DNA of 64,000 nt, from the IMG/VR virus record IMGVR_UViG_3300032280_000659, positions 32,001-96,000 of that record; one strand, 5' to 3'. This document shows positions 815 through 62,130 of the stretch, piece after piece. A program made the translations under genes and the position numbers. Origin of the DNA: a virus (taxonomy: Duplodnaviria; Caudoviricetes). The notes under the pieces are model-generated. The model did not search any database, was not told the DNA's origin, and saw only the letters and a program-made list of their open reading frames with translations. Position 1 is the stretch's first letter. Each line of letters starts with the position of its first letter.

Positions 815-886
815 GGCCCCATAGTTAAATGGATATAATAAGTGACTTCTAATCTCTAGTTGCAGGTTCGATTCCTGCTGGGGCTA
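815..886 (+). tRNA. tRNA-Arg(TCT)
   Basis: Acceptor GGCCCCA/TGGGGCT, anticodon loop CT-TCT-AA, T arm GCAGG-TTCGATT-CCTGC; one mismatch in the anticodon stem; no encoded CCA. Confidence 0.88.
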
Positions 887-891
887 TTGTT

Positions 892-965
892 GGGGGTGTA
901 GATCAATTGGTTAGATCGCTAGCTTGTCACGCTAGAGGTTGCGGGTTCGAGTCCCGTCACTCTCG
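892..965 (+). tRNA. tRNA-Asp(GTC)
   Basis: Full cloverleaf, CTAGC-TTGTCAC-GCTAG anticodon arm. Confidence 0.93.
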
Positions 966-970
966 TTTGT

Positions 971-1052
971 TGTAAACCCTTACTACATAAGCACTTAGAG
1001 CAAATGCGGCGGGCCGGCCGCGTCGTAAGTCCTTATCTAGCAACAACTTGCA
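971..1052. repeat. Paired 11-7-11 palindrome element, copy B
   Basis: TGTAAACCCTT-N7-AAGCACTTAGA (971) and CGTAAGTCCTT-N7-AACAACTTGCA (1024); 53-bp offset; promoter TTGACT-17-TAGAAT at 1081. Confidence 0.85.
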
Positions 1053-1130
1053 TCAAGAATAATTTTTTAGAGTTTTTCGCTTGACTATGCCGATACCATA
1101 GTGTAGAATCGGTAGACACAGGAGAAGAAC

Positions 1131-1835
1131 ATGAAAACTGCTGATGGTAATGATAAGTTGGGTAAGGGTTGCATTGTGGTATCGCGTCCAGTGGGTGATA
1201 CTTGTCCGCCAGACTGCGACTATCTTGGCAACGGTTGCTATGCCGAAGCTACTGAAAACCAGTATAAAAATGCTCGTACTGCTGGTTTTGCTAATGTCGT
1301 GACCGAGAAGAATAAAATCCGTGCCATGATTCTGGATGCAAAGCGTCGTGAGAAGTCTATTCGTTGGCATGAACGTGGCGACTGGTTTCTCAATGGACAA
1401 CTTGACCTAGACTATGTTGCTAATGTAACGTGGGCTTGTGAGAGTATTCTTGCCGATGGTGATACGTTGCCCGATATGTGGTTTTATACTCATATCTACG
1501 ATGCTCGGCTTGTGAGTCTGGAAAAGTATATGAATGTATATGCTAGTGTGCATGATGATAATGATATGGGCGAAGCACTATCACAGGGTTTCAAGCTGTT
1601 TGCATGGTGTGACAGCGATATGAAGATTGCACCCAAGCGACCCAAGAGCAAAGCAAAGGCAGAAGCATGGCGACAAGCACTACCGAAGCTGGTGGTTCTC
1701 AATGCTACAAAGTTTGTAGTGTGTCCGGAAATCCGTCGTGGTCGTTCGGAAATCACTTGCACTGGTACTAAAGATAGTATATCATGTGACTTGTGTGTTC
1801 GTGGTTTGGCTAATGTCTTGTTTCCAGCCCATTGA
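1131..1835 (+). CDS. Cys-rich Gp88-like (radical-SAM-related) phage protein
   Basis: GNDKLG...TCPPDC...GCYA, RWHERGD, WFYTH and C-terminal CP...C...CDLC motifs typical of this phage family. Confidence 0.55.
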   Translation: MKTADGNDKLGKGCIVVSRPVGDTCPPDCDYLGNGCYAEATENQYKNARTAGFANVVTEKNKIRAMILDAKRREKSIRWHERGDWFLNGQLDLDYVANVTWACESILADGDTLPDMWFYTHIYDARLVSLEKYMNVYASVHDDNDMGEALSQGFKLFAWCDSDMKIAPKRPKSKAKAEAWRQALPKLVVLNATKFVVCPEIRRGRSEITCTGTKDSISCDLCVRGLANVLFPAH

Positions 1836-1846
1836 AAGGAATAAAA

Positions 1847-2416
1847 ATGAGCTACATTGGATTGTATGATGATGCAGGAAGTAAGAATGCTTTCTATATT
1901 ATCAAAGATAAAAAGATTGGTCGTAAACGGGTGGGCTTCAAAGAGTTTGAGAATGAGCAAGAGGCTAAGTTTGCCCATCGGGTTCAGTCTCATTTGGCAC
2001 AGTTTGATTTAGCCCCTATGGTATATGGGGATGTTGGTATGATTCGTAGGCATGATGGTGAGTTGACTGCTCATGGTTATTTGACCGAAGTGGCTCGACC
2101 TATGCCGGAATGTCATGATGATGAATATTGTGATGGTGAATGTTTTGAGAGTAGTTGTAAGAATGGTATTTCTATCATGGGAATAGTATCTGATTTAGAT
2201 GAGCATGGTTTATCATACAATGACGCTCATAGAGGAAACTTTGGTTATGTTCGACGCAAAGGATCATGGGTTCCGGTTGTGATCGACCTTGGTATTGAGA
2301 GTTTTACTGATTGGGATGAAGATATTTATGGACAGTTTGATTATAATGATGATTGTAATGATGATTATAATGGATGTAATTGTGTTCACTGCCAAAAATT
2401 TAGAGATAGGGGATAA
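1847..2416 (+). CDS. protein-kinase-like (PKL-fold) phosphotransferase
   Basis: GFKEF (beta3 Lys), DAHRGN catalytic loop, IDLG (DFG-like); acidic/Cys-rich tail. Confidence 0.6.
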   Translation: MSYIGLYDDAGSKNAFYIIKDKKIGRKRVGFKEFENEQEAKFAHRVQSHLAQFDLAPMVYGDVGMIRRHDGELTAHGYLTEVARPMPECHDDEYCDGECFESSCKNGISIMGIVSDLDEHGLSYNDAHRGNFGYVRRKGSWVPVVIDLGIESFTDWDEDIYGQFDYNDDCNDDYNGCNCVHCQKFRDRG

Positions 2417-2418
2417 TC

Positions 2419-2649
2419 ATGGCAAAGTATTATATCAAATGTGGGACACTAGAACTAATTTATTCCTGCAACAAATGTCCAAGGGATGCTGCGATGGATG
2501 CTATATGGGAAACAAATGAAAATGATACACTAGATGAACACTTCTATATAGATGAGCGTGGGTATAGAGACTATGTTACTGCTGATGGACATACTTGTGT
2601 ATTAAATACTGGTCATATTCTCATAGACGCAGGATGGAGTATTGAATAA
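2419..2649 (+). CDS. hypothetical protein
   Basis: 76-aa ORF with RBS, coupled to its neighbours. Confidence 0.7.
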   Translation: MAKYYIKCGTLELIYSCNKCPRDAAMDAIWETNENDTLDEHFYIDERGYRDYVTADGHTCVLNTGHILIDAGWSIE

Positions 2650-2819
2650 TGTGGATTATTATTGACGAGAAAAAGGTAAGACATTTGTGGGAATGTTCAG
2701 AATGTAATAGGCAAGCATATGTAGAGCCTTGGTACTATTCAGAGATGGGTACTCCATCGTGTGAAATTTGTGAAAGAGAGATGGAGTATATCAACACACA
2801 AATAGATATAGAGAGTTGA
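2649..2819 (+). CDS. small zinc-ribbon protein (56 aa)
   Basis: MWIIIDEKKVRHLWECSECNR...PSCEICEREMEY...; TAATG coupling; not in the ORF track. Confidence 0.65.
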   Translation: MWIIIDEKKVRHLWECSECNRQAYVEPWYYSEMGTPSCEICEREMEYINTQIDIES

Positions 2820-2901
2820 CGTAAACCCTTGCTACCATTGCACTTATGGCAAGCGGGGCCGCCCAACTTTGACGTAAGTCCTTAATCCACAAAGCTTTAG
2901 A
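2820..2901. repeat. Paired 11-7-11 palindrome element, copy C
   Basis: CGTAAACCCTT-N7-TTGCACTTATG (2820) and CGTAAGTCCTT-N7-AAAGCTTTAGA (2873); 53-bp offset. Confidence 0.85.
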
Positions 2902-2991
2902 GCAAATCCAAAAATCTTCTAAAGTTTCTACGCTGGATTGGTCGATAATAAGGATATGAGAACGACAAGAGAATCAACAAGGGGTGAGAGA

Positions 2992-3351
2992 ATGATCCAG
3001 TGGGTTGGAATTGTGATTACGATTTTGGGTCTGGCTTATACGGGAATCAAAGATTATCAAAAAGGTGATATTAAATTCCCTCCAATCCCACAGAAACCGG
3101 CCTTGACAAAGGTGGTTTATCCGGTACAATATTGTCTGATGGCTTACGATCCTAATGTTGACAAGGTTTTTTACTTACACGAAAATGGACAATGGCATGA
3201 TTACGCTCCAGAACAACGACGATATTCGACCACGCCGCAACCATATCAAAATCAAGGTCAAGAAACCGTGGGAAATTCCTACAGGACACAAGGAGCATCG
3301 GTATACCGTTATGGACAATCGCCCCAAGCGTCAGCGAACACGATCCGCTGA
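2992..3351 (+). CDS. membrane-anchored hypothetical protein
   Basis: MIQWVGIVITILGLAYTG N-terminal TM segment; ATG 2992 has a GGGGTG RBS. Confidence 0.65.
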   Translation: MIQWVGIVITILGLAYTGIKDYQKGDIKFPPIPQKPALTKVVYPVQYCLMAYDPNVDKVFYLHENGQWHDYAPEQRRYSTTPQPYQNQGQETVGNSYRTQGASVYRYGQSPQASANTIR

Positions 3352-3385
3352 AAAGCGTAGGGCTTGTCAAGATGATGACTATTGA
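3197..3385 (+). CDS. small basic protein overlapping the upstream gene
   Basis: KVKKPWEIPTGHKEH...MDNRPKRQRTR; promoter TTGACA-16-TACAAT at 3103 inside the upstream gene. Confidence 0.5.
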   Translation: MITLQNNDDIRPRRNHIKIKVKKPWEIPTGHKEHRYTVMDNRPKRQRTRSAEKRRACQDDDY

Positions 3386-3401
3386 CTATAATAGTTTGAT
3401 T

Positions 3402-3474
3402 GCCGATGTAACTCAGTTGGTAGAGTGTTAGTTTTGTAAACTAAATGTCGCCGGATCGTTCCCGGCCATCGGCT
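3402..3474 (+). tRNA. tRNA-Thr(TGT)
   Basis: GCCGATG/CATCGGC acceptor, TTAGT-TTTGTAA-ACTAA; atypical T loop ATCGTTC. Confidence 0.88.
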
Positions 3475-3475
3475 C

Positions 3476-3546
3476 TCCGGGATAGTGTAACGGTAGCACC
3501 AGAGATTTTGGTTCTCTTTGTCTGGGTTCGAATCCTAGTCCCGGAA
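3476..3546 (+). tRNA. tRNA-Gln(TTG)
   Basis: TCCGGGA/TCCCGGA acceptor (U1-A72), AGAGA-TTTTGGT-TCTCT. Confidence 0.92.
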
Positions 3547-3554
3547 TTAGATAT

Positions 3555-3626
3555 TGCCCGATAGCACAACGGTAGTGCGGCAAACTGTTAATTTGTAGGT
3601 TCTAGGTTCGAATCCTAGTCGGGCAG
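3555..3626 (+). tRNA. tRNA-Asn(GTT)
   Basis: TGCCCGA/TCGGGCA acceptor, GCAAA-CTGTTAA-TTTGT. Confidence 0.93.
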
Positions 3627-3629
3627 TTT

Positions 3630-3716
3630 GGAATCTTGGCCGAGTGGTTTAAGGCAGCGGTTTACTAAACCGCCGAGGGTTAAAATCCTCCGTGGGTTCG
3701 AATCCCTCAGATTCCG
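3630..3716 (+). tRNA. tRNA-Ser(ACT)
   Basis: GGAATCT/AGATTCC acceptor, G73, long variable arm, GCGGT-TTACTAA-ACCGC (anticodon 3664-3666). Confidence 0.88.
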
Positions 3717-3766
3717 CTAAAGAAAGGTCTTGACAACAGTCGATACTTACTGTAGAATACGAACAC

Positions 3767-3840
3767 GGGGCGTTGCAGCCGGTAGTTGCAATCACTCTTA
3801 TAAGGTGACCATAAGGTAGGTTCGACTCCTACACGCCCTA
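3767..3840 (+). tRNA. tRNA-Ile(TAT)
   Basis: GGGGCGT/ACGCCCT acceptor, TCACT-CTTATAA-GGTGA, GTAGG-TTCGACT-CCTAC; own promoter TTGACA-17-TAGAAT at 3730. Confidence 0.8.
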
Positions 3841-3871
3841 TTCGGAGGCTGATGTTTGGGTTACGATGGCT

Positions 3872-3943
3872 GGCCCTATAGTCTAACGGCTAGGACGACA
3901 GCCTTTCACGCTGTAGATTTGAGTTCGATTCTCAATAGGGTCA
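3872..3943 (+). tRNA. tRNA-Glu(TTC)
   Basis: GGCCCTA/TAGGGTC acceptor, ACAGC-CTTTCAC-GCTGT. Confidence 0.92.
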
Positions 3944-3950
3944 TTTAATA

Positions 3951-4157
3951 ATGTTTCATATTAGACATGATGTTGGCGATATGGTGTGGGTAGAAACTAC
4001 AGAGTATTCTGCTAGTAGAGCAAGAATTACCGGCACTCATACTGACGGGTACTATGTTAATTTCATAGATAAAACATCTGAACAAGAATCTTGTCACAAC
4101 TATCCTGTTATGAGTCGAAAGGTTAAGCCTATCGATTACATAGGACTAGAAAAATAA
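3951..4157 (+). CDS. small hypothetical protein (SH3/Tudor-like)
   Basis: 68 aa, HDVGDMVWV...ARITG...YYVNF beta-barrel pattern. Confidence 0.55.
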   Translation: MFHIRHDVGDMVWVETTEYSASRARITGTHTDGYYVNFIDKTSEQESCHNYPVMSRKVKPIDYIGLEK

Positions 4158-4230
4158 AATTTCTCAACTCTGACCACTTGACAGACCGATGATAGTATGG
4201 TAAGCTGTTGGCACACACAAGGAAACTAAA

Positions 4231-4395
4231 ATGAAGAATCTACGCATCTATGATATTGTAACTGAAGATGGTAAAACTCTTGCCGATATTCAACTTGCCA
4301 TGCAAGAAGATTTTGACTGGGTTGATATTTTTGATAAGTTATACGATATGACTAGTGAGAATGTTGAGAGTTATTCTTACGAAGAAGTTAAGTAA
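4231..4395 (+). CDS. small acidic hypothetical protein (54 aa)
   Basis: AAGGA RBS, promoter at 4178; not in the ORF track. Confidence 0.65.
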   Translation: MKNLRIYDIVTEDGKTLADIQLAMQEDFDWVDIFDKLYDMTSENVESYSYEEVK

Positions 4396-4401
4396 TAAGG
4401 C

Positions 4402-4474
4402 GGGCCTTTAGCTCAATTGGCAGAGCAAGGAGCTTTTAACTCTTAGGTTCAGGGTTCGAGTCCCTGAGGGCCCA
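4402..4474 (+). tRNA. tRNA-Lys(TTT)
   Basis: GGGCCTT/AGGGCCC acceptor, AGGAG-CTTTTAA-CTCTT. Confidence 0.93.
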
Positions 4475-4525
4475 CTTGACAATGTTGGTTGTTGGTGTAG
4501 AATAGAGGCATGAAAGGGATTTACT

Positions 4526-17389: not shown

Positions 17390-17475
17390 GTTAACCCTGT
17401 TCCCGTCGAATGTTTACGCTTAGTGCGTAGATCAACTAGGCTAATTGCCGACAGAGTAGGCGGGGCGGGGTTAAC
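17390..17475 (+). ncRNA. candidate structured intergenic RNA
   Basis: Closing stem GTTAACCCTGTTCCCGTC/GGCGGGGCGGGGTTAAC enclosing hairpins TACGC/GCGTA and GGC/GCC. Confidence 0.5.
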
Positions 17476-56026: not shown

Positions 56027-58705
56027 ATGAAGTTGGCAGACAGAACGATTGAGACTCACAGCGTTGGCGTTGCAAGTAGGAATCAGTTCAATATTGCTCA
56101 GACGAGCAAAATGTTTAAAATCCTTTCAGATTCTCTTTATTCTGATAAGGTAATGGCTGCAATCCGTGAGCTTTCTACTAATGCTTATGATAGCCATATC
56201 TCTGCCGGAAATAAGAACTCCTTCAAAGTTACTCTGCCTACTGCTGCTAATCCCACCTTTATGGTTAGAGATTATGGTACTGGTCTTAGTCAGGCTGATA
56301 TGGAGGACTTGTATACCACCTATGGTGCTTCTAACAAAAATGATAGCAATGATTTTGTTGGTTGTCTTGGTCTAGGATCTAAGAGTCCCTTTGCATATAC
56401 CAAGAGCTTTACCACTGCATCATACTATAATGGCAAGAAGTATACTTATATTGCAGCGATTGACGATAGTGGTGTTCCTACTCTGAATCTTTTTAATACT
56501 TCAAATACGTCTGAGCCTAATGGTCTTGAGATTAGTTTTGCTGTTAAGCAGCATGACTTTCAAGAGTTTACAGACAAGGCTAAGAGAATCTTCCACTATT
56601 TTCGCATGAAACCCATACTTGAGGGTGGTATCGGAAATAATCTTCAAGATCATAAGTATAGCAATACTAATATCATCATTAGTGGTGAAGGTTGGAGGGT
56701 GTGTAGACTCAATAATGATAATAACTATTTCCCTAATGGTTATCATCGAATTGATAGTGGTATCGTAGCTATCATGGGTAATATCGCCTATCCTGTTCAG
56801 ACTGCACAGATTGTGGGTCAAGAAAAGGAAGAAATGCCCGATCATATCCAGAAGTGGAATAGAGCTTTCCAGAAAGCAGATATTGATTCTTGGAAGAGTT
56901 TTGTTGGTGAGATTCTTAACTCTGGCCTTTATCTTGAGCTTGATTTTGGTATCGGTGAACTGGAAATGGATGTTTCCCGTGAAGGTTTGCAGTATACCAA
57001 GGATGTTATCAAGACGCTGCGTAAAAAGACTCAAGAAATTTACATGGAAATGAAGGAAGAATTCTCCAAGAAAATTCAAGCTTCCAAGAACAAAGTAGAG
57101 GCAATTACTTCATACTATACTATGAATGAATTGGCTGGCGGCTGGGGTGTTGGTGCAACTTGGACTGATCCCAAGGGTAAAGATCATCCTATTAACTCTG
57201 GCAATGACTTGGAATATAAAATTCCTGCTGGTAAGAGTCTGTACGTTTTTAATTATAAGACTGCTGGCTATCGTTCTCGTCGCCAAGTTGCTCTGACGGA
57301 CAGAATCCATCACGAAACTCTTACTGGTAAAGGTTCCTATTATTGGAATAACCAGAAGAAGAAGGGCACAATGGCTTTCTTTGTGTGCGATGTTGCGAGT
57401 GAAGAAAGTGCCAAGAAGATTCTCACAAGATATTGCAATGCTAATGATTGTTTTGCTTATCTGATGATCGACACTAAGGATCATACAAAAAGCAATACAG
57501 GTTTTGATCAACTGATCGAAGATGTCGGGGCTGAAAATCTGCTTAAGGTTTCAGACTACAAGCATCTGACACAAAGCTCTGGCCCAAGAAAGTCTTACAG
57601 CAGAAATTCTAATGGTAGTGTTAGCGATCAAGATGTATTCTTTATTCACGGTTATGATAAGGATAGTAAGCAGATTACGAATCCTTACAATGACGCTACA
57701 TATCTAAGAATTCTTTCAGAAGAACAGCTAGAGAATTTTCTTGAACAAGACGAGATTGTTTATGTTCCCATGTTGAGATATGGAACAGAACCTGAGTCTG
57801 GTTGTCCAGAGATTGCTGGGATTAGTAAAACTCTCCAAGAAGATACTCTAAAAAGCATAACTAAGGACTTGATTGGCAATAGTAAGATTTATGCTATCAA
57901 AACAGCTTTCCTTAAAAAGCTTGAGAAGGATGGCTATAATCTTGTTAACTTCAATGATTTTTTGAAGCGTCAACTCAAAATTGTAACACAAAAGCACTTT
58001 AAGAATCTTGGCTCTATCAATAAGCTTGTTGAATATTGTAAGAAGGAATACGCAACAGAAGAGAAGAACGGTGGTGGATATAGGTATTATCAGCATGGAA
58101 CAACAGATAAGCAGTTTATGTTTCATATTCTGAATATCTTTGGCCTGGATTATGATAAGTTTATTAACAACAAGGCTCTTGTAGATTGCTTAAATAAAAC
58201 TATCCTCACAGAGTTCTTTGCTAATACTGTTCATCTAAGCCCCTTTAATATTCCACGGTTCAATCAAACAGAATATCTTTCTCATATCTCTAAGCTTATG
58301 AAAGAGGCTGGGATCGAAGATGTTGACGGTAAGGAGATTCGTAATGCTAACTTGGCTTATAATACCTTAACAAGAATGATTTCTCAAAATTTGTATTGTG
58401 GTCAAGCAGATGACACGGAGAGTTATCTCAAAATTATCCGTGGGACTTCTGCTCAAGATATTAAGACATGGAAAATCTCTGAGATTAGGGAAAAGATTAA
58501 GACAGAAGTAGACAAGAATCCTATGCTCAAGGTTATTATGGGAAATCATCAAGTATCAGGCAATCTGGTAGATCTTAAATCTAATCAGAATCCTATCATT
58601 GAAGATCGCTCATATTATGGAAAGCAGAGTAGGGATTGGGTCGAGCAGATGAGTCAGGAGAATATTGACCTGTTTAGGATTCAGTTGAGTAGTTTGATCA
58701 AGTAG
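56027..58705 (+). CDS. rIIA: T4 rIIA-like protein (GHKL ATPase N-terminus)
   Basis: MFKILSDSLYSDK..AIRELSTNAYDSH, VRDYGTGLS, GLGSKSPFAYT, VSREGLQY; directly upstream of rIIB. Confidence 0.88.
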   Translation: MKLADRTIETHSVGVASRNQFNIAQTSKMFKILSDSLYSDKVMAAIRELSTNAYDSHISAGNKNSFKVTLPTAANPTFMVRDYGTGLSQADMEDLYTTYGASNKNDSNDFVGCLGLGSKSPFAYTKSFTTASYYNGKKYTYIAAIDDSGVPTLNLFNTSNTSEPNGLEISFAVKQHDFQEFTDKAKRIFHYFRMKPILEGGIGNNLQDHKYSNTNIIISGEGWRVCRLNNDNNYFPNGYHRIDSGIVAIMGNIAYPVQTAQIVGQEKEEMPDHIQKWNRAFQKADIDSWKSFVGEILNSGLYLELDFGIGELEMDVSREGLQYTKDVIKTLRKKTQEIYMEMKEEFSKKIQASKNKVEAITSYYTMNELAGGWGVGATWTDPKGKDHPINSGNDLEYKIPAGKSLYVFNYKTAGYRSRRQVALTDRIHHETLTGKGSYYWNNQKKKGTMAFFVCDVASEESAKKILTRYCNANDCFAYLMIDTKDHTKSNTGFDQLIEDVGAENLLKVSDYKHLTQSSGPRKSYSRNSNGSVSDQDVFFIHGYDKDSKQITNPYNDATYLRILSEEQLENFLEQDEIVYVPMLRYGTEPESGCPEIAGISKTLQEDTLKSITKDLIGNSKIYAIKTAFLKKLEKDGYNLVNFNDFLKRQLKIVTQKHFKNLGSINKLVEYCKKEYATEEKNGGGYRYYQHGTTDKQFMFHILNIFGLDYDKFINNKALVDCLNKTILTEFFANTVHLSPFNIPRFNQTEYLSHISKLMKEAGIEDVDGKEIRNANLAYNTLTRMISQNLYCGQADDTESYLKIIRGTSAQDIKTWKISEIREKIKTEVDKNPMLKVIMGNHQVSGNLVDLKSNQNPIIEDRSYYGKQSRDWVEQMSQENIDLFRIQLSSLIK

Positions 58706-58801
58706 TCAGAAATTTCTCAAGACCCCTTGACAAGCTTGCCGATTAGTGTAAAATGACAGTATCACGGGTATCGTAACTATAAAGTATTAGGAGTTTGGAT
58801 T

Positions 58802-59668
58802 ATGGCTGTTCCGTTTATGTTTGTGGATGGTAATTTGACTCTGGTTCTTAATAATCAGAGTTATCAGGTGTTGCCAGATCATATCAACTATAAGTTGATT
58901 CTGGAAAGACTTCCTACTGCTACGGCAGAGGAACTGTTGGAAGTTGTTGATGTTCAAAAGGCTGTTGCTACTTTTAGTGATGGTCTTGTAGAGATCAAGA
59001 ATGGACAGGTTCTTTATGAGGGTGAGGAAGTTCACGGCAGTATCAGTAAGCGTATTCTAGAGTTTATGAGCAAGGGATTGCCGTTTCAGCCCCTTGTTAA
59101 TTTCCTGAATAATATCATGGAAAATCCAAGTATGCAGAGTCAGAAAGAACTGTATGACTTCTTGGAGCATGAGCATCTTCCTATTACTGAGGATGGTCAT
59201 TTCCTTGCCTATAAGGCTGTTCGTTCAGACTTTAAGGATAAGTATAGAGGAGTTTTTGATAACAGCGTTGGGAATGTCTGCACAATGCAACGAGCAAAGG
59301 TAGACGATGATCGTGGTCGTGGTTGTTCTAATGGACTTCATGCTGGAGCATTGAATTATGTTGCTCATTATGGTAGTCTGGAAGCTGGCGACCGTATCGT
59401 GATTGTTAAGATTAATCCCAAGGATGTAGTCAGCGTTCCAAGCGATTCTAATTGTGAAAAGCTTCGTACTTGTCGATATGAAGTGGTTGGACAGTACGAG
59501 GGTGAGCTACTCAAGCCTCTGTACAAAGCTGATTTTAGTCAAGACAATTACGATGATGAGGATGAATATCTTGACGATTACGATGAAAGCTATTGGGATC
59601 AGTTTGATGATGACGAAGAAGATGAGATGGATGATGAAGATGTGGATAATAATGGTTTCTATAGGTAA
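58802..59668 (+). CDS. rIIB: T4 rIIB-like protein
   Basis: NPS...ELYDFL...ITEDGHFLAYKAV...CSNGLH...VKINPKDVVSVP.D...KLRTCRYEV; acidic tail. Confidence 0.9.
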   Translation: MAVPFMFVDGNLTLVLNNQSYQVLPDHINYKLILERLPTATAEELLEVVDVQKAVATFSDGLVEIKNGQVLYEGEEVHGSISKRILEFMSKGLPFQPLVNFLNNIMENPSMQSQKELYDFLEHEHLPITEDGHFLAYKAVRSDFKDKYRGVFDNSVGNVCTMQRAKVDDDRGRGCSNGLHAGALNYVAHYGSLEAGDRIVIVKINPKDVVSVPSDSNCEKLRTCRYEVVGQYEGELLKPLYKADFSQDNYDDEDEYLDDYDESYWDQFDDDEEDEMDDEDVDNNGFYR

Positions 59669-59675
59669 ATAGTCA

Positions 59676-59756
59676 AGGTGGTGTTTGGAACTTGTAAGAT
59701 AGTACCTATATAGTTTTTACTATCATACAATAGGGGTTCGATTCCTCTACCATCTT
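59676..59756 (+). ncRNA. tRNA-like RNA lacking a normal anticodon arm
   Basis: Acceptor-like AGGTGGT/ACCATCT with G3.U70, T arm AGGGG-TTCGATT-CCTCT, long central stem TTGTA-GATAGTA/TACTATC-TACAA. Confidence 0.6.
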
Positions 59757-59835
59757 TTTGGATATTGCTTTTGATGGTAGTGTTTACTGTCCCAATATCA
59801 AAATTGTGAGTAGAAAGTTGGAAAAAGGAAAACAA

Positions 59836-60993
59836 ATGTTTAGCGATAATATTGGCTTTAATCCGTTTGATAAGAACAACAATGTTCATGCTAATGGTAA
59901 CGCTCAGAATAGACAAAGATTTTTGAGTTCATTCAACCAGAACCATATCTTTATTTATAACGGCAATCCTCGTAAAAAGATTAGTAGCATGAGTCATACT
60001 ACTGATATTAATGAGATGCTTGAAGCAAATGTAAATAATCATTCCGATTCTTATTTTTATGTGAATGGTGGTCGTAAAGTCTACGCTATTAAGCAGTTCA
60101 CCAGTTGTTTTTGCGATATGGATGCTGGACGAGATGATCAGGGCAACTATTTTAAGCCCAGTATTGTAATGCAAAAGAAGAAAGAGTTTCTCAATAAGAT
60201 CAATAGTTTTCCTGTAAAGCCAAGTTGGGTTGTCGATACCCGAAATGGCTATCAGTGCTACTGGATTTTTGATGATGCCTCAAGAAACATTGTTGGCTCT
60301 AATCAAACTTTCTGGAATGGTCTGCAAAAGAAACTAGTAAATTACTTTGGTGGTGATCCCAGAGCTATTAAGCCAAATCAGATTTATCGTGTTCCGTACA
60401 CTTGGTGGCGTAAAGAGTGGGAGAAGAAAGCTCCTTACTTCACAAGCTTACTTCATGGTAGCACTGGTCAACCAATTAATGTCGCTGATCTAAAGTCTGC
60501 TCTTACTGGTCAACCTGCTACTCTACAAATTGTTCCTGATAAGTGTAGTGATGAATGGTATAAGGGCTATGCTAAGGCATATAAGCAGTCTGATGTTACT
60601 GGTGTTCCAGTGTCAATCAATGTTGCGACCAATATTCTAAATCAGATGAAGTCTTTGAATCCAGAAGTATATACTAATAGTACAGACGATATTAAGCCTG
60701 TATATGGTTATGCTAGTGGTAGTGTTTTTCAAAAGGCTTATGGCGATCCTATGCCTGTTCATCCGGTTGATGAAGATGTTCTGCTTGATCACAAAGATGT
60801 TTCTGAGGATGCACAGGACACTCTACCAGACGAGGATATGAACCTAGATGGTCAGCAGACCAAGCTTTTAAAGACGGTCGTGGAGTTCCTTAATCAAGTC
60901 TCAACGCCCCTTTACTTTAGCAATAACAGGTTTCTGTCTAATGCTGCTAAAGAACTAGCATCTAAGATCAGCGACAAATTTTGTATTGGATGA
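59836..60993 (+). CDS. RepB/AEP-type DNA primase-like protein
   Basis: YFYVN, CFCDMD (DxD), PSWVVDTRNGYQCYW, GDP....QIYRVP; ATG 59836 has an AAGGA RBS. Confidence 0.65.
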   Translation: MFSDNIGFNPFDKNNNVHANGNAQNRQRFLSSFNQNHIFIYNGNPRKKISSMSHTTDINEMLEANVNNHSDSYFYVNGGRKVYAIKQFTSCFCDMDAGRDDQGNYFKPSIVMQKKKEFLNKINSFPVKPSWVVDTRNGYQCYWIFDDASRNIVGSNQTFWNGLQKKLVNYFGGDPRAIKPNQIYRVPYTWWRKEWEKKAPYFTSLLHGSTGQPINVADLKSALTGQPATLQIVPDKCSDEWYKGYAKAYKQSDVTGVPVSINVATNILNQMKSLNPEVYTNSTDDIKPVYGYASGSVFQKAYGDPMPVHPVDEDVLLDHKDVSEDAQDTLPDEDMNLDGQQTKLLKTVVEFLNQVSTPLYFSNNRFLSNAAKELASKISDKFCIG

Positions 60994-62130
60994 GGGTTTA
61001 GTGTCAGGGGTATTGGAAATTCCATACCCTTTGACACAGCCAATATATAAAGGAGAAAACAAATGGGTAGACATATTAATCCTCTTTTACAGCTTTTATT
61101 GACTGATGAAGAAGCTAAGAAGAAATTTATTGAGCTAATGAATGAGTCGGGATCAGCAAGAGATCTTTACTATTATTTTCAAAAGAATACTTTTTATGGC
61201 AATAAGTATTATCTTAGTTGGCAAACAATTAATAATATCATAAAGAGATTAGGCTTTAAGGGTCGCAGAGGACGAAATCGCAAGAATGTAACTTCTCAAA
61301 ATAGATATAGTTATAGGTAATAATCATGTCGAATGGCGGAAATATTTATGACGACGACGATGATGATGGCTATGATGATAGTCAGGACAATTTAGAGAGT
61401 CATTATAAAAAATACTTTAAGTTTGATCCCGATGCGTGGGATGCTTGGGGAAAAATGCTATATGACACTCTTAACGACATAGTTGAACATCCGTCGAACG
61501 TGTGGTATATTGGCCCTAGCTTTCCAAAGAAGTTGTTACCTGTGAATAGTTGGAATCCCAATGCTGGTAAGGATAAGTCCTTCCAGTATTTGGGGTCCAA
61601 TTATCAAGGACAGCCAATTTGGAAAAAACAATATTTTATTCACAACAAGTTGGCTACTCAATACATGAATCATATCAAATCACATGCTGTTAATTTTATT
61701 CATCAGCCTCATTACTATAAAGGAATGTTCGATATAATGAACTAAATTATGAAATCTAATCAATGGTATAGTATTAATGATATAGATTTATTTGTGGAGT
61801 CATCTAGAGTGTTAGTGTATAGTGCATTTGGTCAAAATCAATCAGAATTGGATGGTATAAATATTAATATAGAAGCTTTAGATGATGAGGCTAAAAGAGA
61901 GTTAGATAGATGCTTATCTCAACGAGAATGTATGGTTATCGTAAAGGATTTTCTCGTACCATCTAAAAACGGTAAAACATATAAGATATCAGAAAAAAAA
62001 TATAAGGCATTTATAGACTCACTAAATGCAAGATTAGTGAGTAATATGTTACATAGATTATCTCATGATGGCTTATTGGAGAGTGCATTTGATGAGGAGT
62101 CAAATGACTTTGTTTTTTGGGTAAAAGAAA

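Follow-up and report, generated by a model that had tools for sequence, protein, structure and literature searches.

The DNA analysed here, referred to as the window, is a stretch of 64,000 nucleotides corresponding to bases 32001-96000 of a 114-kb IMG/VR viral contig, which originates from an uncultured freshwater phage of ~230 kb. Related complete genomes are 225-238 kb in size and have direct terminal repeats. In the region of interest, rIIA (56027-58705) is followed by a sigma-70-like promoter, rIIB, a tRNA-like element and a gene coding for a protein of 385 aa, in that order (Table 1). The rIIB stop codon is a TAA at 59666-59668, and the tRNA-like element, which is 82 nt long (59675-59756, plus strand), begins 7 nt later. 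The putative promoter between rIIA and rIIB would launch a transcript that either ends at the element or passes through it. For the 385-aa gene (59836-60993), no function was found in Pfam, PDB or PHROG, and among the ESM Atlas neighbours of its product RepB_primase/PriCT is present in 15-30% of the members. This neighbour had originally been called a primase; the gene is indeed there, but its identity as a primase is a lead only.

Table 1. Coordinates, in the window, of the tRNA-like element, its parts and the surrounding features
Feature	Coordinates	Strand	Remarks
Sigma-70-like promoter, TTGACA-16-TAAAAT, in the rIIA/rIIB interval	58727..58754	+	Consensus scan, 11/12 matches; consensus match only
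rIIB	58802..59668	+	PHROG RIIB lysis inhibitor, E 1.7e-72; ORF list
Acceptor-like stem, 5' strand (A)AGGTGGT	59675..59682	+	Pairs with 59749-59756
D mini-hairpin GTT-TGG-AAC	59683..59691	+	GG of the loop is G18/G19-like
Long hairpin, 5 + 7 bp around an A.A mismatch	59692..59730	+	Lineage-specific
13-nt loop CCTATATAGTTTT of the long hairpin	59705..59717	+	
T arm AGGGG-TTCGATT-CCTCT	59732..59748	+	Canonical T loop, G53:C61
Acceptor-like stem, 3' strand ACCATCT plus T at the discriminator	59749..59756	+	
T-run TTTTT	59755..59759	+	Overlaps the stem end; T arm + T-run terminator-like in a scan
Two-tier hairpin, outer GATATTG/CAATATC, inner GATGGTA/TACTGTC, loop GTGTT	59761..59799	+	Minimum-energy fold
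385-aa gene, downstream of the element	59836..60993	+	Family unassigned; primase-like is a lead only
Complete phage tmRNA	43787..44139		Rfam 95.7 bits, full-length model; missed by ARAGORN

Folding of the element gives, in order, an acceptor stem, a D mini-hairpin of 3 bp capped by a UGG loop, a hairpin of 12 bp whose loop measures 13 nt, and a canonical T arm, after which comes UUUUU. In the acceptor stem, AGGTGGT (59676-59682) pairs with ACCATCT (59749-59755), the third pair being G.U, and an eighth pair may be formed by A59675 and T59756. Position 73 is T (U), and CCA is not encoded in the element. The tRNA hallmarks that are present comprise the acceptor stacked on the T arm, a T54-psi55-C56-R57-A58 loop, the G53:C61 pair and the GG of the D loop. 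The acceptor stem and the D hairpin adjoin without nucleotides 8-9 between them, and the three-dimensional fold may therefore differ from that of a tRNA. Folding energy alone is weakly unusual, with z values of -1.5 to -2.0. The parts listed in the original prediction were all recovered at the positions given for them, namely the 7-nt gap after the rIIB stop, the acceptor with a third G.U pair, the T arm and the GTT-TGG-AAC element, as were the interrupted 12-bp stem with its 13-nt loop at the place of the anticodon arm and the U at the discriminator position.

ARAGORN identified 10 tRNAs in the window, the element not being among them, and called no tRNA at the element site in 19 relatives. 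An Rfam search at gathering thresholds detected the tRNAs of the window and its tmRNA but nothing at the element. In a permissive local Rfam search, the best match was to tRNA-Sec, with 18.1 bits (cut-off 47, E 0.32), and came from the acceptor and the T arm; the same search gave no tmRNA match at E values up to 10 and no YrlA/Y RNA match. Comparison of the element with the tRNA, tmRNA and YrlA models, which had been proposed as a check, thus yielded no Rfam match above cut-off. The canonical anticodon arm of 5-bp stem and 7-nt loop is absent from the window version, and its 82 nt contain no ORF and no message domain.

Approximately 400 IMG/VR contigs encode a related rIIB. Two protein-guided scans for rIIB-bearing viral contigs gave 241 and 399 relatives, and about 160 loci were fetched from these two overlapping searches. 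A T-loop motif was found within ~100 nt after rIIB in every fetched locus that reaches past this gene (162 loci, some contigs being included twice), and the two fetched loci without it are both cut off by the contig end. In the 23 close variants, 99.8% of the pair cells are standard and compensatory changes occur at 6 pairs, which none of 500 shuffles matched. A covariance model was built from diverse members and 54 distinct variants were aligned with it, giving 95.3% of paired cells versus 75% in shuffled and 40-57% in slid controls, and changes on both sides at 19 of 20 pairs. As it was fitted to the model, this 54-variant alignment leans towards structure; the same compensations are visible in the raw sequences, unaligned to the model. 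In each of five genomes (225-238 kb) the covariance model found exactly one strong match, of 52-55 bits, the next-best matches (30 bits or less) being true tRNAs. Since there is a single copy per genome, the element is not a general punctuation system, and a multi-copy system of this kind was rejected as a candidate.

The different parts of the element vary in distinct ways. All 8 acceptor pairs covary family-wide, with 92% of the cells paired, and the outer 2-3 pairs, which are A:U, are often mismatched in other lineages and erode into A/U tracts. The D mini-hairpin, whose stem is 3-4 bp long, changes on both sides at all three pairs (GUC/GAC, GUU/AAC, CGC/GCG, CUUG/CGAG) and is paired in 98%, and its loop UGG(N) is invariant across the family; covariation at the family level favours this mini-hairpin over a canonical D stem. 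In the T arm, 4 of 5 stem pairs covary (99.6% paired) and the loop GTTCGAT is invariant in the 54 variants. The long hairpin shows compensatory changes at 3 pairs in the close group. Among 39 haplotypes of the window lineage, nucleotide diversity (pi) is 0.073 in the element versus 0.205 at the 4-fold sites of the adjacent rIIB. This variation sits mainly at compensating stem positions, the loops being almost invariant and ~8-fold more conserved than synonymous sites. In the 39 haplotypes the 13-nt loop, CCUAUAUAGUUU(U), hardly varies, and it is common to the L065 group, which shares part of it as CUA(U)AUAGUUU. As judged from these substitution patterns, the element is under strong purifying selection. 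Covariation, the single strong match per genome and the low diversity together indicate that it is real, functional and not decaying. Conservation of synteny and covariation beside rIIB had been named as a test of the prediction, and a homologue with covarying structure does occupy the same place in the relatives. Similarly, the covarying stems, the near-invariant loops and the low pi bear out the earlier view of an intact structure rather than a decaying tRNA.

Across the family, which forms a size series from 47 to 87 nt, the constant core consists of a G-rich acceptor, usually with A residues on its 5' side and a T-run on its 3' side, the D mini-hairpin and the T arm. What lies between the D mini-hairpin and the T arm is variable. 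In the shortest form, of 47 nt (L100), this middle module is a 6-nt linker, and in the forms of 57-60 nt (L054, L099, L121) it is a linker of ~15 nt. A 3-bp stem with a GNRA cap is found in L172, 6 bp with a 3-4-nt loop in L120 and L139, a 6-bp stem with an internal loop plus a small variable hairpin in the L049 and L077 types, and a hairpin of 12-13 bp in the window lineage. The minimum-energy folds of the short relatives give the same junction. The replacement of the anticodon arm by a long hairpin, as described in the original prediction, is therefore true of the window and is not a feature of the family, the arm being absent or tiny in many relatives. In L122, a separate GC-rich hairpin (GACTCC-GTAA-AGGAGTC, L122:2370-2404) is located between the rIIB stop and the tRNA-like element.

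Two types of relatives come close to a true tRNA. With the Rfam tRNA model, the L077 type scored 29.3 bits and the L049 type 27.2 bits, for a threshold of 29 that the L077 type alone touches. When aligned to tRNA, both show a canonical D stem (GUCU/AGAU), a 5-bp anticodon stem and an anticodon loop of 19-23 nt, which begins with CUCUGG or CUCUAG and continues with 12-16 extra nucleotides. These forms are possible intermediates between a tRNA with a CUG or CUA anticodon and the form without anticodon. In both (L077:3880-3966 and L049:3885-3968), the oversized loop is followed by a small covarying hairpin. The combination of AGTCTGGNGACT and GGTTCGATTCC is also found inside ordinary tRNA genes of unrelated viral contigs, and in several variants the T arm is identical to that of the phages' own tRNA-Trp. 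The near-tRNA relatives (27-29 bits) and the motifs shared with tRNA genes and tRNA-Trp indicate that the family descends from a tRNA gene. By its sequence, the window version is a derived form of this tRNA-descended family and is unable to decode. A normal tRNA, named beforehand as a finding that would speak against the prediction, was seen at the site in no relative, yet some have this near-tRNA with its oversized anticodon loop. A tRNA-like piece not called by ARAGORN was also noticed inside a tRNA cluster in L182 (L182:1631-1689), as well as in L177, L184, L209 and L210, which are unrelated contigs. It has a AGTCTGGTGACT D motif, a T arm and an encoded ACCA, and adjoins a tRNA with a CUA anticodon.

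Directly downstream of the element, the inner stem of the hairpin at 59761-59799 shows compensatory changes and is paired in 46-49 of 49 sequences. This hairpin is found only where the 385-aa gene comes next; it is part of the leader of that gene and separate from the tRNA-like element, and it may be a regulatory leader of the primase-like gene. A pairing of the acceptor strand TACCATC with the downstream GATGGTA was considered as a conserved feature and discarded, because GATGGTA sits in its own covarying hairpin. Where the hairpin stem is switched to GATAATG/CATTATC, the acceptor strand is unchanged and the alternative TACCATC/GATGGTA pairing is lost. In many relatives, the 385-aa gene is not adjacent to the tRNA-like element. 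The small ORF found directly 3' of the element in other lineages, for which Pfam has no family, is a homologue of the window ORF 61326-61745, and its identification as a homing endonuclease insert was rejected in view of this homology. Members of this ORF family (also L054:3944-4360 and others) are 112-150 aa long and have a very acidic, Tyr/Asp-rich N-terminus. At least 10 sub-lineages have the homologue of ORF 61326-61745 directly 3' of the element, so that the window's genes for 385 aa and 85 aa form an insertion/deletion cassette.

The explanation that we favour, and to which we give an even chance of being correct, is that the element is a cis-acting, tRNA-shaped 3'-end and processing module of the rIIB mRNA, acting through RNase P and RNase Z and through partial termination. 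The original prediction had offered a decoy or an RNase P/Z cleavage signal, and among its options the cleavage signal in the rIIB transcript fits best. In all relatives, 5-21 nt separate the rIIB stop from the element, which accompanies rIIB even where another gene comes next. The parts that have been kept are the acceptor/T-arm stack and the elbow of D loop and T loop, the anticodon arm having been replaced or lost, and RNase P, RNase Z, the CCA-adding enzyme and the T-loop modifying enzymes read precisely this stack and elbow. The T loop, the G53:C61 pair and the D-loop GG are invariant or covarying, which goes beyond the needs of a plain terminator hairpin. The distance from the element to the next ORF, which has a ribosome-binding site, is 12-19 nt in at least 10 sub-lineages; as this leaves no room for a promoter, transcription of this ORF must pass through the element. 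A T-run of at least 4 is present at the 3' end in 47 of the 54 distinct variants and often pairs with the 5' A residues; most of the phage's own tRNAs have just TT after the discriminator. The terminator-like flag of the scan, the simple hairpin that phage PA5oct has after rIIB and the strong purifying selection likewise count in favour of this explanation. CCA is encoded neither in the 10 tRNAs of the phage nor in its tmRNA, and the phage genomes encode no CCA-adding enzyme. As the phage tRNAs and tmRNA come without encoded CCA, the host must already use RNase P, a 3' endonuclease and the CCA-adding enzyme on such substrates.

From the structure, conservation, single fixed position, tRNA descent and inability to decode described above, we infer the following enzymatic steps. 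The transcript from the promoter upstream of rIIB would reach the element, and the rIIB message would acquire a tRNA-derived, non-decoding RNA as its 3' end. Part of the polymerases would be halted by the closing stem and the U-run. Host RNase P would cut on the 5' side of the element, and a 3' nuclease such as RNase Z would cut after position 73. These cuts would set the 3' end of the rIIB mRNA and part rIIB from the downstream cistron, freeing a small stable tRNA-like RNA to which CCA would probably be added. Several observations weigh against a processing module: there is one element per genome, the abutting acceptor and D hairpin could give a fold different from tRNA, and the weak or mismatched outer acceptor pairs of several lineages could lower recognition by RNase P. 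In addition, the near-invariant 13-nt loop is not needed by a pure cutting signal, which suggests an added role in trans or in protein binding.

That loop also speaks for a possible but distinctly less probable explanation, in which the RNA, once released, is a tRNA mimic acting in trans: it would bind and titrate a factor, from host or phage, by which the elbow or the acceptor end of tRNA is recognised. Candidate targets are a tRNA-targeting defence enzyme, a modification or CCA enzyme, or EF-Tu, and the loop of the long hairpin would provide lineage-specific recognition. The loops, notably the 13-nt loop, are far more conserved than neutral sites, the elbow and the acceptor are fully retained, and such a mimic is compatible with release by processing. 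On the other side, many relatives lack the long hairpin together with its loop, the element has no linked partner gene, and no significant complementary target of the loop was found in the window (12 matches versus 13.3 expected). A specific form of this idea, which we rate almost as low as the general one, is that of a tRNA decoy made early from the rII transcript, which would soak up an anti-phage enzyme that attacks or senses tRNA, or another tRNA-binding factor, with a middle module tuned to the host lineage. Rather improbable, in our estimation, is that an old tRNA gene simply gave rise to an ordinary intrinsic terminator or attenuator whose tRNA-like details are functionless today. The 5' A-tract, the closing stem and the U-run in 47 of the 54 variants are terminator-type features, the site was flagged as terminator-like in the scan, and in phage PA5oct a simple hairpin occupies the corresponding position behind rIIB. 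However, the stems are free to covary but the sequences of the T loop and the D loop do not change, a constraint not placed on terminator loops; branched terminators of 47-87 nt are unusual, and the ORFs 12-19 nt downstream need read-through.

The remaining alternatives have little to recommend them. The G3.U70 pair is the determinant for alanyl-tRNA synthetase (AlaRS), and the original prediction had drawn on it, as well as on a resemblance to the tRNA-like domain of tmRNA and to Y RNAs. When pair 3:70 was numbered by anchoring on the T stem, the 23 close variants had G.U in 20 cases, A:U in 2 and G:C in 1, and the 43 variants parsed family-wide had G.U in 11, A:U in 15, G:C in 9, A.C in 4, G.A in 2 and A.A in 2, all 11 G.U being from the window lineage; the L065 group, which lies outside this 43-variant parse, also has G.U. 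The pair is thus lineage-specific and already gives way to A:U or G:C within the close group, so that an AlaRS identity was not borne out. Because G3.U70 is replaced in relatives, a conserved role with AlaRS, tmRNA or SmpB is not supported; on sequence alone, charging confined to the window lineage is possible. It is accordingly very unlikely that the element mimics the tRNA-like domain of tmRNA, accepts alanine and engages AlaRS and/or SmpB, even if the third acceptor pair is G.U in the window and most close variants, a non-Watson-Crick pair occupies 3:70 in several other lineages and the phage depends on host trans-translation factors for its own tmRNA (G3.U70, A73, CCA not encoded), no SmpB gene being found in four related phage genomes. 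Against such a mimic stand, besides the Watson-Crick pair in 24 and the mismatch in 8 of the 43 variants, the U73 in place of A73, the covarying D hairpin where the tmRNA domain has an open loop, and the lack of an Rfam tmRNA match and of a message domain, and these same features argue against the tmRNA domain as the identity of the element, as do the lack of an SmpB gene in the phage genomes and the presence of a complete phage tmRNA. The comparison with Y RNA fared no better, as there is no YrlA match, the ends form an acceptor stem and no Ro/TROVE domain was found in five genomes. Equally improbable is a signal at the DNA level, such as a promoter, an origin or single-strand initiation site, or a protein-binding palindrome beside the primase-like gene. 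It could appeal to a weak sigma-70-like match inside the element (TTGGAA-18-TATAGT, 59685-59714, 9/12), to the loop palindrome CTATATAG (CTAATTAG in L048) and to the neighbouring gene, which may be a primase. Yet the pairs that covariation preserves on one strand are of the RNA type, G.U among them, the T-loop motif is specific to RNA, a 1-nt insertion in the D loop changes the promoter spacing in many variants, and the hairpin and the primase-like gene are absent in many relatives; an origin of replication at the element was rejected, there being no change in GC skew. The least probable reading is that of a tRNA that still functions in decoding, its oversized anticodon region being either excised or tolerated, for instance a CUG/CUA tRNA carrying a short insert. 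It draws on the L077 and L049 types, with their scores, possible canonical D stem, 5-bp anticodon stem and CUCUGG/CUCUAG loop start, but no known bacterial mechanism excises inserts of 12-16 nt, such a loop is missing from the window form, the arm is wholly absent in many relatives and ARAGORN called none of the 19 relatives. Recoding of stop codons, suggested by the CUA/CUG-like loops, was rejected after a crude ORF-coverage test in the window, in which TAG gave no specific gain.

The processing module preferred here has its precedent outside phages. In plant mitochondria, mRNA ends can carry t-elements, tRNA-like structures of non-canonical shape that have a conserved GGTTCRANYCC arm and serve as substrates of RNase P and RNase Z (Forner et al. 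2007, PMC1920247). These RNAs receive a CCA tail and base modifications but no amino acid (Ceriotti et al. 2024, PMC11658184). They are the closest counterpart of the phage element, which has the structural features of the t-element definition (PMC1920247), a GGTTCGATTCC arm in a non-canonical fold directly flanking an mRNA. Common to both are the GGTTCRANYCC T arm, the position at a message end, the non-decoding nature and the origin from a tRNA gene. In contrast to t-elements, the phage element is not organellar, occurs once per genome at one fixed gene under strong selection, and has a D mini-hairpin abutting the acceptor, a conserved U-run and a variable, lineage-specific module, and its processing is only proposed.

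Other tRNA-related RNAs resemble the element in part. At the 3' ends of MALAT1 and NEAT1, a tRNA-like fold (mascRNA and menRNA, respectively; mentioned in PMC9777231) is cut by RNase P, which defines the 3' end of the transcript, and RNase Z cleavage and CCA addition then yield a free small, non-decoding tRNA-like RNA. The likeness is that of a tRNA-like fold terminating a longer transcript, but these RNAs are eukaryotic and nuclear and their upstream RNA is stabilised by a triple helix, whereas the upstream RNA in the phage is an mRNA with its stop codon 7 nt away. With the tRNA-like domain of tmRNA, the element shares the acceptor on a canonical T arm, the GG of the D element, the lack of an anticodon and, in the window lineage, G3.U70; it differs by its D hairpin in place of an open D loop, its U73 instead of A73 and its unconserved G.U, and it has no P2, pseudoknot, message domain or Rfam match, the phage having a separate, complete tmRNA. 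The stable RNA species 1 and 2 of phage T4 (rnaC, rnaD) are tRNA-related, non-decoding RNAs of unknown function that are processed by tRNA maturation enzymes. Like the element, they are small, phage-encoded, tRNA-related and non-decoding; compared by description, they differ in that they lie inside a tRNA gene cluster, measure ~120-140 nt and are not linked to rII. YrlA and Y RNAs, which are found in some phages too, share the elbow module of T arm and D arm but have the opposite topology, their 5' and 3' ends forming the Ro-binding helix where the phage element has its acceptor stem.

No tRNA-like element next to rIIB and no t-element-like device of a phage were found in the literature searched, Rfam holds no description of an rIIB-linked tRNA-like element, and a large viral structured-RNA screen mentions tRNA-like candidates in general terms only. 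A tRNA-shaped mRNA-end or cutting signal is therefore most likely not yet described in phages, such signals being known from plant mitochondria and a few animal long non-coding RNAs. The element is absent after rIIB in the records of Xoo-sp13, PA5oct, an uncultured 595-kb phage and Mwe-JY26 (four records), and the closest rIIB proteins of cultured relatives are at most 43% identical. Large freshwater phages of an entire clade retain the element at a single fixed place under strong selection. Should it serve as a processing signal, the maturation of a phage mRNA would involve RNase P and RNase Z of the host; should it act in trans, it would represent a tRNA decoy that is both natural and minimal. 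Either way, the natural series from 47 to 87 nt can define which tRNA parts recognition requires in the absence of decoding.

Other RNAs were noticed in the window. The tRNA cluster at 815-4475 includes a tRNA-Ile(TAT), and none of its tRNA genes encodes CCA. At 3630-3717, ARAGORN called a tRNA-Ser with the unusual anticodon ACT. Finally, the Rfam DUF3800-VIII RNA motif was detected at 17391-17474, with a score just over threshold (40.7 versus 40.2 bits).
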